Source: a virus. Taken from it: a DNA stretch of 19,283 nucleotides. The position numbers and the translations under genes are program-made. This document shows, one piece after another, positions 985 to 11,763 of the stretch. The notes beneath the pieces are model-generated. The model saw only the letters and a program-made list of their open reading frames with translations. It made no database searches and was not told where the DNA came from. Each line of letters opens with the position of its first letter. Positions within the stretch are counted from its first letter, which is position 1. Where the stretch lies: the UHGV virus genome UHGV-1601451. One strand, written 5' to 3'.

Positions 985-1326
985 TTAATAAAAAACAATT
1001 GGCTTTCACCATTTTTAATTACTTTTCCCAGCATGCCGAAAATGTCTCATTTATTTGAATGATTGTATCTTTAATAGATATATCGCGACTATTCCTAAAC
1101 TTATTTCTAGTTGTTAACAAAACTGTGTGCTATGAATGTCTGCTGTTGGCACATAGCAGTTCTAGAGACAGTGGCGTAAAGTCATGGAGAATCGGTGGAA
1201 GGAGGTGCAAACCCTCTCATACAAAAATGCGTAAAATCAGTAACGGCTGGAAATCATTCAATACTCGCACTATCAAAAGTTCACCAGCCAACCGCGACAC
1301 CTCCTGCATACGACATGTCTGCGGTT

Positions 1327-1881
1327 TTATATAACCCTGGCTGGAAACCTCTTATACAAAGTTGACACACCAACATCATAGATAATAGCCACCTTCTGGC
1401 GAGGAACGCCTGATGCAATTAATCGCCCGGCCTGCGCCCATTGTTCTGGTGTAAGTTTGAGACGACGTCCACCAATTCGTCCCTGTGCGCGAGCAGCTTC
1501 CAGTCCAGCTTTTGTTCGTTCAACAATCAGTTCTCGTTCCATTTCAGCCAGGGCACCCATCACATGAAAGAAAAAACGCCCCATCGGTGTGCTGGTATCA
1601 ATAGCATCCGTCAGGCTGCGAAAATTAACGCCACGTTCGCGCAACTCCTCAACCAGAATGACCAGATGCCGCATACTACGCCCCAGCCGATCCAGCTTCC
1701 AGACAACCAGAGTGTCACCTGCCGATAATGTCCTGAGCAGTTTTTTCAGTCCCGGCCTTTCGGACTTTGTGCCGCTTATCTTGTCTTCAAAAATCAGCTC
1801 GCATCCTGCACAGTTCAGCGCATTACGTTGTAGATCTGTGTTCTGGTCATTTGTTGACACACGTACATAGCCAATAAGCAT
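1327..1881 (-). CDS. pin: DNA invertase, serine recombinase of the Gin/Pin/Hin/Cin family
   Basis: Translation from the ATG at 1881, MLIGYVRVSTNDQNTDLQRNAL...VVWKLDRLGRSM...MGRFFFHVMGALAEMERELIVERT...GRIGGR, matches the resolvase/invertase catalytic domain (active-site Ser in RVSTNDQ) plus a C-terminal HTH. AGGGAG SD 7 nt upstream of 1881. The 12-codon extension in the track ORF (to 1917) is not supported. Confidence 0.93.
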   Translation of the reverse strand: MLIGYVRVSTNDQNTDLQRNALNCAGCELIFEDKISGTKSERPGLKKLLRTLSAGDTLVVWKLDRLGRSMRHLVILVEELRERGVNFRSLTDAIDTSTPMGRFFFHVMGALAEMERELIVERTKAGLEAARAQGRIGGRRLKLTPEQWAQAGRLIASGVPRQKVAIIYDVGVSTLYKRFPARVI

Positions 1882-1935
1882 GGTAGATCTCCCTGACAAA
1901 AGCAGGAATGATGCCATTTGCTCGTTATTTCTGCA

Positions 1936-1961
1936 TTTTCATAAACGTTGGTTTGGGAGAA
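1936..1961. repeat. gix/hix-like 26-bp recombination crossover site (right site), between invertase start and invertible segment
   Basis: TTTTCATAAACG-TT-GGTTTGGGAGAA: two 12-bp half-sites around a 2-bp core. The inner half-site is a perfect inverted repeat of the inner half-site at 3797-3808. The core TT is the reverse complement of the AA core at 3809-3810. Confidence 0.8.
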
Positions 1962-2300
1962 GCGGCCAAATTGCCTGCGATTAGTGGCTCTTTATCATCA
2001 TCTGGCTGGATAAAAATCCCTGTTATAGAGGGGAAGTCTTTTATTATCCAATGGGGAAGAATCGGACCTTCTGATAGTAAAACTGGTGTTGCAACAGGAA
2101 GTTATCCTATTGCTTTTCCAAATTCTGCATTTATGGCATTTATTGCTGAAAAAACCGCAGTATCCACAGGCCCAATAGGTATTAATTCCTGGGGAGTATC
2201 CGAACTAACAAAAACAGAATTAAAGGCCATTTGTGCTGCAAGGACTATATCAACTTCAGCCGCAACTGAAACAGGTGATTTTCTGGTACTGGGATATTGA
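1950..2300 (+). CDS. alternative tail-fibre C-terminal variable part (Sv'-like), no own start; expressed only after inversion as a fusion to the constant N-terminal part
   Basis: The frame is open through the right crossover site. GGT TTG GGA GAA (GLGE) at 1950-1961 is in frame with the downstream ORF ...AAKLPAISGSL...IIQWGRIG...LVLGY, stop at 2298-2300. The same GLGE codons occur in the minus-strand fibre gene at the left site, so inversion gives an in-frame fusion. Confidence 0.75.
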   Translation, partial: GLGEAAKLPAISGSLSSSGWIKIPVIEGKSFIIQWGRIGPSDSKTGVATGSYPIAFPNSAFMAFIAEKTAVSTGPIGINSWGVSELTKTELKAICAARTISTSAATETGDFLVLGY

Positions 2301-2320
2301 GCTTCCATAAGGATTATAAA

Positions 2321-2770
2321 ATGTCGAGCATAATATACTACAGCTCTATAAATAATGCATTTTACCCTGAGCATTTGAAACAAGAATATATTAAATCTAA
2401 TTCTTTTCCAGCAGATGCAAAACCCGTTAAATATTCTGTTTTCGAAGAATTTGCACTTAAACCAGCACCAGAAGGAAAATACAGGTGCGTTGGTGAAGAT
2501 GGAATGCCATCATGGGCAGATATTCCACCACCAACACATGAGGAACAGATTGCCGCAGCCGAATTGAAAAAGCAGCAATTGATTAACCAGGTCAACGAAT
2601 ACATGAACAGTAAACAATGGCCCGGTAAAGCGGCTATTGGTCGTCTGAAAGGTGAGGAACTGGCGCAATATAATCTGTGGCTGGATTACCTGGACGCACT
2701 GGAAATGGTCGATACTTCCAGTGCTCCAGATATTGAATGGCCTACGCCTCCGGCAGTTCAGGCCAGATGA
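2321..2770 (+). CDS. tail fibre assembly protein (Tfa/U'-like), cognate to the alternative fibre tip
   Basis: MSSIIYYSSINNAFYPEH...DTSSAPDIEWPTPPA has a typical Tfa N-terminus and the conserved C-terminal D-T-S-x-A-P-D-x-x-W-P motif. AAGGA SD 7 nt upstream of the ATG at 2321. The track ORF begins at a TTG at 2297. Confidence 0.8.
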   Translation: MSSIIYYSSINNAFYPEHLKQEYIKSNSFPADAKPVKYSVFEEFALKPAPEGKYRCVGEDGMPSWADIPPPTHEEQIAAAELKKQQLINQVNEYMNSKQWPGKAAIGRLKGEELAQYNLWLDYLDALEMVDTSSAPDIEWPTPPAVQAR

Positions 2771-3344
2771 CATCTGGCGCGGTGCTGGTATCAGTTGCCG
2801 TCACCGCGTCAATGTAATCCAGCACAGCGTTAAGGCGGGTTGTTTCTGTCTGCGTCAGTTTACGTCCGGCCTGCAATTTCAGTTGAATCAGACTGATGGA
2901 AGCCATAGCAGCATCAATCAGATACTGGCGCTGTGCTTCTGCCGCTTCTACTGCGGCGCTATGCTGTGCCTCAGTATCCGTCACCCATTTCTCACCATCC
3001 CATTTATCGTATGGCGTTAATGGGGCGATAGTGGTTGTATTATCAGGGTAATCACCCGGAGCTGTGATTTCTTTTGATTCTCCTGTTTCGGTGCTAAAGA
3101 CGATTTCACCGCGATGGTCTGGCACATATTCCCATGAGTTAAAATCTGCAGAACGGCAGATTGCATAACCAGCTTTGTATGCGCCTGGAGCATCTAAACA
3201 GGAACATGCCGGAATGCCGACACCAACGGCAAGATATTCAGTTGATATGGAAATATATTCCCGTGTTTCACCATCATAATTATAGACAGTAATATTCCCC
3301 GCCTTCGTGGCAATAAACTCGCTATTTAATACAGCGCTATCCAT
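2742..3344 (-). CDS. tail fibre assembly protein (Tfa/U-like), cognate to the currently expressed fibre tip
   Basis: 200 aa ending ...LDYIDAVTATDTSTAPDVIWPELPEA, the conserved Tfa C-terminal motif. Start ATG overlaps the fibre stop (TAATG). Its 3' end overlaps the convergent Tfa' gene by 29 nt. Confidence 0.85.
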   Translation of the reverse strand: MDSAVLNSEFIATKAGNITVYNYDGETREYISISTEYLAVGVGIPACSCLDAPGAYKAGYAICRSADFNSWEYVPDHRGEIVFSTETGESKEITAPGDYPDNTTTIAPLTPYDKWDGEKWVTDTEAQHSAAVEAAEAQRQYLIDAAMASISLIQLKLQAGRKLTQTETTRLNAVLDYIDAVTATDTSTAPDVIWPELPEA

Positions 3345-4099
3345 TATGCAGCCCTCACAATGTAGTTAAATGCGATGTTGCGTGGACGGACACCGAAATA
3401 AGAAGTAACACCATTCATTGTCAAATTTCCAGAGCCAAAAGCGGTAAAACCAGAACCAGCATTAACTGCCGAATCCGCGTTTCTGACAAAGTTTTTGGGA
3501 GGTGAACCGGAGACACCAGCCGAAATATCATCAGCATTACCGCCATTGCCGTGGTGGTTAGTTATCTTTGTTTCCGCCTGCGCCGTCAACAAACCTCGTC
3601 CAGAGTCAACCCCGCGCCCGTCATCCCAGCCGCGAATAAACTCACCACGTAAATCAGGCAATTTATTTGTCGGATAAGCCTTTGCCAGTTCCGGGTATTC
3701 TTCAGCAGAAAAAGCCGCGCCGTTGCATTTCAGCCAGCCTGTTGGCGGAGTGGCGGAAGGCCATGGAACAGGGACACCAACGGGTAATGCAGAGCCTTCT
3801 CCCAAACCAAGGTTTTCGAGAGCCGTTTTCACCGTGCCATCCGATTTGATATCACCAAACGGATTCTTGCGGCTTAACAGCAGCGCACGAAGCGCGGTAA
3901 GCAGCTGGTCGTGCCGCGCCTTCTCCAGGCTGGCACCGGATGCCTCCACAACACTGCAAAGTTCCTCCTGCAACATGTCAAAGTAGTCATCATCCAGATC
4001 GGTGGCAGGTGTGCCGTTCTGGGGGTTACCACGGGTAAAACCGTTCTTACCCGCGCCGAACTTATCCTTCTGCGCGGTTTTCGTATCTATACGATGCAT
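3344..4099 (-). CDS. tail fibre protein: constant N-terminal part fused to variable tip carrying a phage tail-collar domain
   Basis: 251 aa. GGAG SD 6 nt upstream of the ATG at 4099. The tip downstream of the crossover site has PVGVPVPWP...[24 protein letters not shown]...[12 protein letters not shown], matching the tail-collar fibre domain signature. Crossover site lies inside the gene at 3797-3822. Confidence 0.9.
3797..3822. repeat. gix/hix-like 26-bp recombination crossover site (left site), inside the tail-fibre gene
   Basis: TTCTCCCAAACC-AA-GGTTTTCGAGAG. Near-palindromic 12-bp half-sites resembling the TTnnnnnAAACC half-site of Gin/Hin systems. 15 bp are identical to the inverted right site. 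Confidence 0.8.
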
Positions 4100-9160: not shown

Positions 9161-10996
9161 TTACCTGCCAAAGCGCGTATAGCCAACATCATGGCTGACA
9201 TCAAAACCGCTGGATCGCGTTTCCATAACCCGCATACCCGGAGGCGAATTCACAAAAGAGACCTTGATCTCACCATCAACTTTTGGCGCAGAAGCTTTGT
9301 TAATCATGAAGGGATTCGGGCCTGTGGCATCGGAGGCGTTGTTTGACTGAGCCGGATCTACCGCCTGATAAGGTGTGTATCCCCGTGCCGGTATTCCCGT
9401 CCCATAAGCATCATAAGCACCCGCGCCCCACTGCGCAGAGTTAATGACATCGACCGTGTCACCGGAACTGTCGGTAAACCACTCAATAATTGGCTTCAGC
9501 TTGTCCCACATATCCTGAAACCACTTAACAACCGGTCCCCAGTTATTGATTACCATCCCCAGCGGCGACCAGGCAAAAACCTTCTTCAGAAGTTCCCAGC
9601 CAGCCTCAAAATAAGGACCAATGGTTTCCCAGAGCTTCTTGAAATAAGGTCCGACAACATCCCAGTTAGTGATAATTAATCCCGCAGCCAGGGCTATCGC
9701 CGTCGCAATCATTCCAATCGGCGTCATCGACATGATCCTGCTGACAATACTGATGGCACCGCCAACGCCCATCAATCCCAGTTTCAGAATCGCAAAACCG
9801 GCAGCAAGCCCGACGACGCCGCGAATAACCCGGGGATTTTCATCCGCAAACTTCGTGAATTTTTCCCCTAACTCCCCCAGCCATTGCGTGATATTTTTGG
9901 CGTCACCAGAAAATGCGCCGCCAATAGCCGCAAGGCCGTTAGTTGCGGTCCCCGTCATTGCCTCCCACAGGTTGGACAGCGTACCAAGCTGGGCCTGAAC
10001 ACGTTTATTCAGGCTGGCCTGTTTATTCATCTTCTGCTGGATCTGATCGTAACCATCTTTTCCTTTATCGATCAGAGCATTGACCACCTGAAGGGTTTCA
10101 GCATCATCACCAAATATTGCCTTAAGTACACCGGTTCGCTTAACGTCGGTCAGTTTTCGCAGCTTTGCCAGTTGCCTGAACATGTTATCAAGACCGCCAA
10201 AACTCCCTTTGCCGTCAGTAAAATCGAGCTGCACTCCGAGTTTCTGGCGGGCCATGACTTTATTGACGTCCCTGATTTTCTTAACGCTTAATCCGGACTG
10301 GATAACTTTTCGCAGGGCATTACCTGCCGACTCCCCGTTCATCCCCATCTGATCCATCATGACGCTGATAGGGGCAAGGCTCTGTGCAGCCTGAAGACCG
10401 TCCTTATTCACCATCTTCAGAACAGAACTGGTTTTAGTGAAGAAGGACAACATGTTGGTATCGTCAACGCCCAGATAAAACGCCTTCTGGATAGTGTCGA
10501 ACAGCCCCATCATGTCTTCTGACGCCGTTCCGGTAGCATCCTGCATCTTTGCAGCAAACTCAGCAGCCGCTTCTGGTGTTTTTTTCAGTTGTACCGCAAG
10601 ATAAGCTGTCGCTTTACCCACACCACCCAGAATGTTTTCTGCCGGGATCCCCTGACGCACCAGCATCTGCATCATGTTCTGGAAATCAGCCGTTGTACCG
10701 GGTAGCTGGTTACCCAGGCCAATAGCCAGTTTATTGATGTCCTGAAAGCGCTTTCCAACCTCGCCGTTCGCATCCATCATGGCGACTTTCAGCCCGGTGG
10801 CGGCGTTTTCCTGATCGGCATAAGATTTCAGGGAAAGCGTCAGACCCGCTGCCAGTCCGCCACCAAGCGCCAGCCCACCCTGTGACGCTTCTTCCGCCTG
10901 GCGTTTAAATCCCCGGATTTTCTTTTGCATTTTCGACAGCGCCGGAGAAAGCCTGTCGACACCGGTGATCAACGCCTTAAGCTCAAATTCAGCCAT
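9161..10996 (-). CDS. tail tape measure protein
   Basis: 611 aa, helical and Ala/Gly/Leu-rich with a Trp-rich C-terminal region. Located directly after the frameshifted chaperone pair and before the baseplate genes. Confidence 0.85.
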   Translation of the reverse strand: MAEFELKALITGVDRLSPALSKMQKKIRGFKRQAEEASQGGLALGGGLAAGLTLSLKSYADQENAATGLKVAMMDANGEVGKRFQDINKLAIGLGNQLPGTTADFQNMMQMLVRQGIPAENILGGVGKATAYLAVQLKKTPEAAAEFAAKMQDATGTASEDMMGLFDTIQKAFYLGVDDTNMLSFFTKTSSVLKMVNKDGLQAAQSLAPISVMMDQMGMNGESAGNALRKVIQSGLSVKKIRDVNKVMARQKLGVQLDFTDGKGSFGGLDNMFRQLAKLRKLTDVKRTGVLKAIFGDDAETLQVVNALIDKGKDGYDQIQQKMNKQASLNKRVQAQLGTLSNLWEAMTGTATNGLAAIGGAFSGDAKNITQWLGELGEKFTKFADENPRVIRGVVGLAAGFAILKLGLMGVGGAISIVSRIMSMTPIGMIATAIALAAGLIITNWDVVGPYFKKLWETIGPYFEAGWELLKKVFAWSPLGMVINNWGPVVKWFQDMWDKLKPIIEWFTDSSGDTVDVINSAQWGAGAYDAYGTGIPARGYTPYQAVDPAQSNNASDATGPNPFMINKASAPKVDGEIKVSFVNSPPGMRVMETRSSGFDVSHDVGYTRFGR

Positions 10997-11407
10997 GTGT
11001 GCGTTTCTCCTGCTCTATCCTGTTTGCCTGACTGACCAGCAAGGGAATTTCACTGATCGGCATATTCAGCAATTCGAAGGGATTAATGCGCCAGTAACTG
11101 GCGCAGTCAAAGAAGCGATCAGTGAGGTATTCAGCCGTCAGGCCTGGAGGAAAAAACCAGCCACAAGCCACGCCGCTGCATTCAGGTCTGCCGGAGACAT
11201 CTGGTCGACAGAGCTTTGCGGCACTTTCGCCAGCCGCACAATGTATTTCGACACCACATGCGCCAGAAGTCTGACGGACTCATCCTGATTCATCTGGTAA
11301 GGATACCCCAGCTCGCGGACATCCTTCCCGGTGGGTTCATCAAACTCCAGTACGGAGAGTGTCTCGCCATGAGCGATAATCGGTTTCTTTAACTCAAGCT
11401 CTTTCAT
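10989..11407 (-). CDS. tail assembly chaperone, long form produced by -1 programmed ribosomal frameshift
   Basis: Slippery heptamer T-TTT-TTC on the minus strand (plus coords 11150-11156). The -1 frame continues as FFPPGLTAEYLTDRFFDCASYW...EKRTHG and stops at 10989, overlapping the tape measure start. Same architecture as the lambda G/GT and P2 E/E' chaperone pairs. Confidence 0.7.
11138..11407 (-). CDS. tail assembly chaperone, short (in-frame) form
   Basis: 89 aa ending ...AAWLVAGFFLQA, directly upstream of the tape measure. Contains the slippery heptamer near its 3' end. Confidence 0.8.
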   Translation of the reverse strand: MKELELKKPIIAHGETLSVLEFDEPTGKDVRELGYPYQMNQDESVRLLAHVVSKYIVRLAKVPQSSVDQMSPADLNAAAWLVAGFFLQA

Positions 11408-11763
11408 TACTGGTAATCCCCTTCTTCACCGTGGAACTCAAGATCAACCGTGCCTTCTTCGGCATTATGGTTCGCTTCGCCGTGCACCCAGGCTGACGAC
11501 AATACATAGACCTGACCGTTCGCCAGCTCAGCAGTGATGGTCATCTCATCAGACGAGGTGATTTTGCTCACAGGAAAATTCTTCGGCACCTTGAAGGTCC
11601 CTTTAACATAGGGCGCACGGTGAGTTTCCTTGCGGTCCACTGAACCGTCCAGGCCGATGATGTCATCATTGACCGTCCTGTTCATGGGCACCTCAATGCC
11701 GCCGGTCAGCGATAGCTGCTGACCGTCAATTTTGAAATAACAGGTTCCCCCGATACGGGCCAT
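11407..11763 (-). CDS. tail tube protein (Mu-type)
   Basis: 118 aa, immediately downstream of the sheath gene with overlapping stop and start. Confidence 0.8.
   Translation of the reverse strand: MARIGGTCYFKIDGQQLSLTGGIEVPMNRTVNDDIIGLDGSVDRKETHRAPYVKGTFKVPKNFPVSKITSSDEMTITAELANGQVYVLSSAWVHGEANHNAEEGTVDLEFHGEEGDYQ

Follow-up and report, generated by a model that had tools for sequence, protein, structure and literature searches.

In the class of tail assembly chaperones that Xu and colleagues reportedly defined, each pair of proteins has the same N-terminal part and is produced at a fixed ratio, and both members are said to be needed for tail assembly and to be absent from virions. The −1 frameshift of phage P2 has reportedly been established by experiment. 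The chaperones of lambda and P2 need a few percent frameshifting. The P2 reference record (RefSeq NC_001895) marks the −1 site, and the P2 E/E′ site has no downstream RNA structure (PMC3091744). In lambda, the G/GT pair arises from a low-level, heptamer-driven −1 shift at G_GGA_AAG (PMC5009743). In Mu, the +1 frame of the gp41 chaperone is reached by a −2 shift (PMC2628397, PMC5009743).

The stretch of DNA analysed here (19,283 nucleotides; hereafter the window) corresponds to the morphogenesis region of an E. coli prophage that resembles SfV and has a head of the HK97 type and a contractile tail of the Mu type. We consider it highly probable (roughly 0.86) that the tail assembly chaperone gene of this prophage contains a programmed −1 ribosomal frameshift of the P2 E/E+E′ type. 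A frameshift of this kind had been proposed in a preliminary description of the same DNA, and the proposal is supported by gene position, membership in the family PF10109, homology to P2, conservation, coding in the −1 frame and missing start codons.

The chaperone gene pair and its probable slip site

The features discussed below are all on the minus strand.

11407..11763, minus strand: tail tube gene, 118 aa (PF10618 Tail_tube, E 3e-33; phrog_185)
11138..11407, minus strand: short chaperone open reading frame (ORF), 89 aa plus stop, the zero-frame, gpE-like product (PF10109)
11150..11156, minus strand: slippery heptamer T_TTT_TTC in X_XXY_YYZ phase, chaperone codons 85-86
10989..11150, minus strand: −1 extension, E′-like, 53 codons plus TGA (phrog_32181, E 4e-40)
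join(11407..11150, 11150..10989), minus strand: predicted trans-frame product, 139 aa
11133..11144, minus strand: weak 4-bp hairpin GGCC-UGAC-GGCU whose loop contains the zero-frame TGA, spaced 5 nt from the heptamer on the 3′ side
9161..10996, minus strand: tape measure gene, 611 aa (PF10145, E 5e-27; TIGR01760, E 3e-51)

The genes follow one another on the minus strand in the order tail tube, chaperone, −1 extension and tape measure, and the ORF pair therefore occupies the position of the lambda G/GT type, between the tube gene and the tape measure gene. The TAA stop of the tube gene, which is labelled "tail tube protein" in SfV and in E. coli RefSeq records, overlaps the ATG of the chaperone (TAATG). 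The chaperone ORF runs from the ATG at 11407 to the TGA at 11140-11138 and belongs to PF10109 (Phage_TAC_7, the family of P2 gpE, Mu gp41 and gp14), with a score of 55.3 bits against a cut-off of 25 (E 6.8e-15) and residues 4-86 aligned on profile positions 2-78 of 79. Public records label it "phage tail assembly protein". No NCBIfam model matched the chaperone, and a sequence search of the PDB returned no relative with a solved structure.

The zero-frame 3′ end of the chaperone is GCT GGT TTT TTC CTC CAG GCC TGA. Because the zero frame is read GGT TTT TTC, the heptamer T_TTT_TTC (11156..11150) stands in X_XXY_YYZ phase, and its TTC is the fourth codon ahead of the stop, with three sense codons between them. 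The preliminary description had placed an in-phase heptamer at exactly this point of an 89-aa ORF, and the sequence confirms it. After the slip, the first codon of the −1 frame is CCT (11150-11148), and the frame continues for 53 codons (PPGLTAEY...EKRTHG) to a TGA at 10991-10989. The earlier estimate of about 50 codons thus holds, but the accompanying statement that the frame is open from exactly the heptamer does not, since it is already open 41 codons upstream and has a GTG at 11171, 5 codons upstream of the heptamer. Between the −1 stop and the tape measure ATG (10996) there is an overlap of 8 nt (ATGGCTGA), which bears out the claim that the extension ends on the tape measure start. The slip junction of the 139-aa product is predicted to read ...AAAWLVAGFFPPGLTAEYLTDR, and the predicted tryptic peptide across the junction is VPQSSVDQMSPADLNAAAWLVAGFFPPGLTAEYLTDR.

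Taken alone, the heptamer could be due to chance. The sequence TTTTTTY occurs 16 times in the window against an expectation of 7.4, and an open frame of 53 codons has a chance of about 8% in random sequence (a rough estimate). However, the combination of the heptamer with a long −1 frame is not chance. There are 14 in-phase X_XXY_YYZ heptamers in the 27 genes of the window, and at only one of them, the chaperone site, does the −1 frame pass the zero-frame stop; at the others, it closes after 0-32 codons. The chaperone T_TTT_TTC is also the sole such heptamer in the overlap zone.

Comparison with P2, Mu and lambda

According to its sequence, the site is of the P2 E/E+E′ subtype: a −1 heptamer in a T run lies at a conserved Gly-Phe, and the E′ domain that follows is homologous. 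A pairwise BLASTP comparison with P2 E+E′ was not significant (E 0.41), and a profile comparison was therefore needed. When 28 trans-frame proteins were compared with P2 E+E′ by hhalign, the match reached 94% probability (E 1.4e-7) across 120 columns that cover both parts of the fusion, and the slip residues GFF fell in the same column of the alignment. As in P2, a PF10109 chaperone stands directly upstream of the tape measure gene of a phage with a contractile tail. P2 has T_TTT_TTG at codon 84 of the 91-aa gpE and the window has T_TTT_TTC at codon 85 of 89, with the same aligned GF|F; the extensions are 57 aa (E′) and 53 aa, respectively, and both phages have an 8-nt overlap between the end of the −1 ORF and the tape measure gene. 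Folding of the window for pseudoknot-free structures predicted no significant or conserved RNA structure downstream of the heptamer, as is reported for P2. The two differ in the last base of the heptamer, which is G in P2 and C or T in the SfV-like lineage, and in the surrounding tail genes, which in the window are Mu-like (homologues of gp38, L, M and gp43-48). In addition, the P2 site has been proven by experiment, whereas the window site is predicted from sequence.

The window and Mu share a homologous tail module (sheath, tube, DUF2635, DNA circularisation protein and the baseplate gp44-48 families), and the chaperone family in Pfam includes gp41, which occupies the same gene position. However, the gp41 chaperone has 144 aa and no T run, and its extension is in the other frame. 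A Mu-type −2 shift was rejected for the window because it is the −1 frame that encodes the extension, and the +1 frame meets a stop 2 codons beyond that of the zero frame. With lambda, the locus shares the plan of a protein pair that has one N-terminus, lies between the genes for the major tail and tape measure proteins and is produced at a fixed ratio, the ratio being an expectation in the window. It differs from lambda in that the lambda tail is non-contractile and the heptamer and tRNAs are other ones, and our search found no sequence similarity between the window chaperone and lambda G/GT.

These comparisons suggest how the pair would be made and used. The majority of ribosomes would stay in frame and produce the 89-aa protein. 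In a minority, with tRNA-Phe in the P site on UUU and in the A site on UUC of U_UUU_UUC, both tRNAs would move back by one base and pair anew, each with UUU; the post-slip codons still specify Phe and are read by the same tRNA. Translation would continue in the −1 frame for 53 further codons and terminate just within the tape measure gene, giving a protein of 139 aa that shares its first 86 residues with the short form and carries a new C-terminal domain. By analogy with lambda G/GT and P2 E/E+E′, the shared N-terminus would serve to coat the tape measure protein and the additional domain to recruit the tail tube protein, and the slip would fix the ratio of the two proteins, neither of which would be present in the virion. 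The roles of the G (tape measure-binding) and T (tube-binding) domains were shown for lambda, and we infer them for the window proteins.

Conservation, coding and alternative readings

The chaperone alignment is too divergent for scanning, and the loci of relatives were therefore located with the tail tube alignment, which reached relatives with as little as 35% tube identity. The heptamer T_TTT_TTY (TTC or TTT) is present at the equivalent codon in 50 of 53 related loci and, among IMG/VR prophages, in 77 of 80. The 50 loci span four bacterial orders (Enterobacterales, Burkholderiales, Pseudomonas and Succinivibrio), with one additional Vampirovibrionales MAG. The codon before the heptamer keeps its wobble T whether it encodes Gly, Ser, Asn, Arg or His, and the last base of the heptamer is only ever C or T across the set. 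This restriction fits the observation that H_HH.U_UU.Y heptamers are among the most shift-prone in E. coli (PMC4066793). In the relatives, the −1 extension has 49-62 codons, and its end lies no more than a few nucleotides from the start of the tape measure gene; beyond the slip site, the zero frame continues for a variable 3 to 27 codons, which are not conserved. Some prophage copies have indels at the slip site, and there are natural variants with one T inserted.

The same product could also arise if RNA polymerase stuttered on T6 (template A6) and added one U. The product would be identical, since GGU UUU UUU CCU is read G F F P, and an mRNA with the additional U encodes the same 139-aa protein; sequence therefore does not separate ribosomal from transcriptional slippage. 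Slippage by the polymerase would accord with the strong avoidance of UUUUUUU in all three phases of E. coli genes, which the authors of that survey put down partly to transcriptional slippage or indel mutation (PMC4066793), and with the weakness of the bare heptamer as a ribosomal shifter (0.12%; PMC4066793 supplement). Relatives with T6 and T7 runs, and one with T8, point the same way. However, E. coli RNA polymerase slips markedly only on homopolymer runs of about 8-9 bases or longer. The run in the window is 6 T and in nearly all relatives 6-7 T, lengths that speak against more than a low level of slippage. Furthermore, the restriction of the last base to C or T fits re-pairing by tRNA and is irrelevant to a polymerase in the T6 members, and both annotation and literature treat the homologous site of P2 as translational. 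We therefore regard polymerase slippage as an improbable source of the long protein and a ribosomal shift as the probable one.

In the 141-nt gap before the tape measure gene, dN/dS lies at 0.03-0.31 when the −1 frame is read and at about 1-3 for either of the remaining frames, and the variable sites of the −1 extension are distributed 27/16/41 over the three codon positions. Judged by these ratios, purifying selection acts in the gap only in the −1 frame. An alternative reading is an independent gene in that frame (10989..11171, 60 aa, translated separately from a GTG start), to which the GTG that lies 5 codons upstream of the heptamer is available; an ORF of 60-63 aa has been called there in vB_EcoM-689R6 and in many E. 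coli records. However, the GTG at 11171 is not preceded by a Shine-Dalgarno motif, and no such motif was found at any candidate −1 start in 54 distinct loci. In 34 of these 54 loci, the −1 frame contains no ATG, GTG or TTG between the upstream stop and the conserved Trp, although its coding remains under purifying selection, and homology links the protein to the C-terminal portion of P2 E+E′. Independent initiation was rejected on this survey of start codons, and we hold a separate gene to be very improbable.

It is scarcely credible that the heptamer with its open −1 frame is due to chance or is a relic in decay, and that the 89-aa protein alone has a function: TTTTTTY is frequent in the window, with one in-phase occurrence within the invertase gene, and this is a prophage of which certain copies have indels at the site, but site, frame, length and end point have been kept across the four orders, dN/dS is far under 1 solely in the −1 frame, and the viable phages SfV, SfI, SfII, phiP27, ST64B, YeP1, AH07 and EPP-1 have the arrangement.

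The preliminary description had suggested looking for a stem-loop or pseudoknot shortly downstream of the heptamer. Folding for pseudoknot-free structures predicted none there that was significant or conserved. Folds of 50 and 97 nt 3′ of the heptamer did not outdo those of shuffled sequence (z −1.17 and +0.71). Among 52 distinct relatives folded locus by locus, there was no common hairpin at a spacing of 4-10 nt, and RNAalifold placed no pairs near the slip site in 15 relatives of the T6C type and 20 of the T7A type. The hairpin at 11133..11144 is the only structure with the right spacing, but it was rejected as a stimulator because the fold is comparable to shuffled sequence and is not kept in relatives. 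The sole consensus helix is an 8-bp hairpin at 11087..11105, 44 nt downstream of the heptamer; it lies in the conserved C-A-S-Y-W-R codons, is broken in the most distant members and has no real covariation, and it was likewise rejected. A Shine-Dalgarno-like stimulator upstream is absent from the window, and none is conserved in the relatives. Across more than 50 diverged relatives, the heptamer alone is conserved at the RNA level.

The lack of a predicted stimulator does not weaken the frameshift reading because P2 E/E′ is reported to be without one (PMC3091744). In an E. coli reporter, the bare U_UUU_UUC gave 0.121% frameshifting, and 7.6% with a pseudoknot (PMC4066793 supplement). Given this value and the lack of a conserved structure or Shine-Dalgarno-like motif, the native efficiency is possibly very low, or an undetected factor is needed. 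If the native ratio is a few percent, as against about 0.1% for the bare heptamer, another factor must raise shifting. We think it rather doubtful that the slip site relies on a so far unrecognised kind of stimulator. Such an enhancer may be the nascent peptide immediately ahead of the slip, which is hydrophobic and conserved (W/M-x-[IV]-x-G-F-F), or RNA polymerase slippage on the T run may contribute.

Annotation and occurrence

Signals of this type are well known in phages, and this instance is omitted from public annotations. All of the records examined either have a hole of 141 nt before the tape measure gene or give the second frame as a separate "hypothetical protein". Because these records omit the −1 fusion, a predicted essential tail assembly protein is absent from the corresponding proteomes. 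A literature search, with Christie et al. (2002) and Xu, Hendrix & Duda (2004) outside its reach, returned no description of the slip site in SfV-like phages.

The value of the case is chiefly one of annotation, and it raises no new question for the biology of recoding. A tail module of the Mu type can bear a P2-type −1 signal in a T run instead of the −2 signal of Mu, and this pairing fits the known picture in which the need for two chaperone forms is conserved and the recoding device varies. The 901-nt stretch around the gene pair is matched in 1099 of 5426 complete E. coli genomes, and the reference phages SfV, SfI, SfII, SfIV, phiP27 and ST64B carry it as well.

The slip site and its genomic setting

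A programmed -1 ribosomal frameshift in the tail assembly chaperone pair was proposed in the preliminary description, and this interpretation is supported by the P2-type geometry of the locus, by 50 of 53 related loci and by the coding signal in the -1 frame. The elements involved are as follows.

11407-11138, minus strand: chaperone ORF of 89 aa, ATG at 11407 to TGA at 11140-11138, read from the sequence
11156-11150, minus strand: heptamer T_TTT_TTC in X_XXY_YYZ phase, from the chaperone's terminal codons
11150-10989, minus strand: -1 extension (E') of 53 open codons, PPGLTAEYLTDRFFDCASYWRINPFELLNMPISEIPLLVSQANRIEQEKRTHG, to TGA at 10991-10989

The chaperone ATG shares bases with the TAA stop of the preceding gene (TAATG), and its 3′ codons are GCT GGT TTT TTC CTC CAG GCC TGA; the in-phase heptamer described near the end of this ORF is therefore confirmed. 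The first codon after the slip is CCT at 11150, and the predicted trans-frame protein has 139 aa. The -1 frame, expected to run about 50 codons to the tape measure start, ends 8 nt inside that gene (ATG 10996). The statement that this frame opens exactly at the heptamer was wrong, because it is already open 41 codons upstream, with a GTG five codons before the heptamer.

The morphogenesis region of an SfV-like prophage makes up the window, which shares 99.8% identity with several E. coli chromosomes and about 98% with phages SfV, SfI and SfII. Of the 5426 complete E. coli genomes, 1099 gave a match to a 901-nt query around the slip site. All genes between 2742 and the high end of the window lie on the minus strand. 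After the HK97-type head genes (terminase nuclease domain, portal, S78 protease, capsid protein) come genes for the connector, for head completion and for the tail terminator; the tail module itself is Mu-type (DUF2635, sheath, tube, tape measure, DNA circularisation protein, homologues of baseplate gp44-gp48). PF10109 ("tail assembly chaperone proteins E, or 41 or 14") is the family of the chaperone ORF, which scored 55.3 bits where the cut-off is 25. For the -1 peptide the match is phrog_32181 (63-aa ORFs, "unknown function"), meaning that the second frame is sometimes annotated as a separate gene.

Evidence beyond chance

The window contains TTTTTTY at 16 positions. The heptamer taken alone is no more than chance, whereas the heptamer combined with an open -1 frame is more than chance: among 14 in-phase slippery heptamers in the 27 window genes, the chaperone site is the one whose -1 frame passes the zero-frame stop, and the -1 frames of the other 13 close after 0-32 codons. 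This baseline includes a second in-phase T_TTT_TTC (1570-1576, minus strand; codon 115 of 196 of the invertase gene), which looks like a chance occurrence because a stop ends its -1 frame after 8 codons.

We consider the comparative evidence to be decisive on this point. Seven annotated phage relatives (SfV, Pantoea AH07, Edwardsiella EPP-1, phiP27, ST64B, SfIV and Yersinia YeP1), whose chaperones are as little as 28% identical, have either T_TTT_TTC or T_TTT_TTT at the corresponding codon, and their -1 extensions of 52-53 aa stop 8-11 nt into the tape measure gene. A scan with the tail tube protein as query, one genome per species, yielded 53 loci (tube identity 98%-35%) from Enterobacterales, Burkholderiales, Pseudomonas, Succinivibrio and Vampirovibrionales MAGs. 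T_TTT_TTY in the same position and a 49-62-aa -1 extension ending at the tape measure start are present in 50 of them. The exceptions are a contig ending right after T_TTT_TTG, a locus with a truncated tube gene, and L051, from an uncultured Candidatus Pantoea bathycoeliae MAG, with a 1-nt frame change beside the run (about 2097). In the 53-locus set the zero-frame tail past the heptamer is unconserved (3 to 27 codons). The codon preceding the heptamer (Gly, Ser, Asn, Arg or His) ends in T in every case, and the last base of the heptamer is C or T only across the lineage.

The 141 nt between the chaperone and tape measure genes are empty in public annotation. Among 11 relatives, variable sites in this gap number 27, 16 and 41 at -1-frame codon positions 1, 2 and 3. 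Pairwise dN/dS in the -1 frame is 0.03-0.31, and in the other two frames about 1-3; three further pairs gave no value because synonymous sites were saturated (pN 0.035-0.34). These substitution patterns indicate that the gap codes for protein in the -1 frame alone. This frame lacks any ATG, GTG or TTG from the upstream stop to the conserved Trp of the extension in 34 of 54 distinct loci, and no Shine-Dalgarno motif was found at candidate -1-frame starts in the 54 loci, including GTG 11171 of the window. We infer that the -1 frame has no independent start.

The canonical site is kept in 77 of 80 near-identical IMG/VR prophages. Rare variants of such prophages, each at about 2105-2115, are G_TTT_TTC (L137), G_TTT_TTT (L101) and L126, in which the slip site has lost every run of at least five Ts and the E' frame thus becomes +1. 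These three copies and L051 are probably weakened or defective.

Mechanism and relation to known frameshifts

One tRNA-Phe reads both UUU and UUC, and a tandem -1 slip on U_UUU_UUC leaves both tRNAs paired with Phe codons. Heptamers of the form H_HH.U_UU.Y are among the most shift-prone classes in E. coli (PMC4066793). A stem-loop downstream of the heptamer, which the preliminary description had suggested looking for, was not found: folds in the window were no better than those of shuffled sequence, and no hairpin was common to the relatives. An upstream Shine-Dalgarno-like motif is also absent from the window. A stimulator is likewise reported to be absent in P2 and its relatives (PMC3091744). 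The only consensus helix is a stable 8-bp hairpin within the E' coding region, UGCGCCAG-UUA-CUGGCGCA (11087-11105, minus strand), which is kept in close relatives through conserved C-A-S-Y-W-R codons, broken in distant ones, and lacks covariation. We rejected it as a stimulator because 44 nt on the 3′ side of the heptamer is too distant to affect a ribosome at the slip site. In a reporter without stimulator, bare U_UUU_UUC gave 0.121% and U_UUU_UUU 0.326% frameshifting (PMC4066793); these low rates and the lack of a detected stimulator leave real uncertainty about native efficiency. Slippage of RNA polymerase at these Ts, which would lead to the same protein as a ribosomal slip, may make a low contribution.

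P2 gpE has 91 aa, with T_TTT_TTG at codon 84 and an E' of 57 aa that ends in an 8-nt overlap with the tape measure gene T; the -1 site is marked in RefSeq. Pairwise BLAST against P2 E+E' was not significant. When 28 trans-frame proteins of the lineage were combined into a profile, it aligned with P2 E+E' over 120 columns (94% probability, E 1.4e-7), spanning both parts, and the Gly-Phe-Phe slip sites share one column. Mu has otherwise the nearest tail module, but its frameshift is -2 and enters the other frame at a G-rich site (PMC2628397, PMC5009743). The site in the window is therefore of P2 type and not of Mu type, and the sequence comparisons support its reading as a so far unannotated case of the already known P2-type chaperone frameshift. 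By analogy with lambda and P2, binding of the tape measure protein would fall to the shared N-terminal part and recruitment of the tube protein to the extra C-terminal domain, and the slip would set the ratio between short and long forms (PMC5009743). To be set against the reporter rates above, the ratio required in lambda is about 1 GT for every 30 G, and the P2 frameshift frequency is 2-3 times that of lambda (PMC5009743).

Annotation, natural variants and other features

A joined chaperone CDS is absent from the annotated records examined, which include SfV (NC_003444), SfI, SfII, SfIV, phiP27, ST64B, YeP1, AH07, EPP-1 and PGAP-annotated E. coli. The equivalent of 10997-11137 is either left empty or called as a -1-frame "hypothetical protein" of 60-63 aa (phrog_32181); vB_EcoM-689R6 and many E. 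coli records are examples of the latter. NCBI lists a protein identical to the 139-aa trans-frame product as a normal CDS (KDU40741.1, STK26617.1) because one nucleotide is inserted at the slip site in three assemblies (equivalent to window 11150-11160):

L145, 1225-1292: insertion copy
L146, 1225-1292: insertion copy
L147, 1225-1292: insertion copy

Two independent assemblies carry GGGTTTTTTCC, and one carries T7, which is probably a sequencing error because neighbouring genes are also broken. Insertion copies would yield the long form only.

The window also contains a Gin/Pin-type invertible tail-fibre switch (1327-4099), with two ORFs beyond the invertase:

448-984 and 1059-1334, plus strand: two ORFs, 178 and 91 aa
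1327-1917, minus strand: serine invertase gene
1943-1962 and 3796-3815: inverted repeats, 20 nt, 95% complementary, core AAACCAAGGTTT
1908-2300, plus strand: alternative fibre C-terminus
2297-2770, plus strand: fibre-assembly gene beside it
2742-3344, minus strand: assembly gene of the expressed fibre
3344-4099, minus strand: expressed fibre, facing the alternative C-terminus

The ORFs at 448-984 and 1059-1334 gave no Pfam family, the sole match being a weak RmuC hit below cut-off (E 0.003); they may be prophage cargo or flanking genes.
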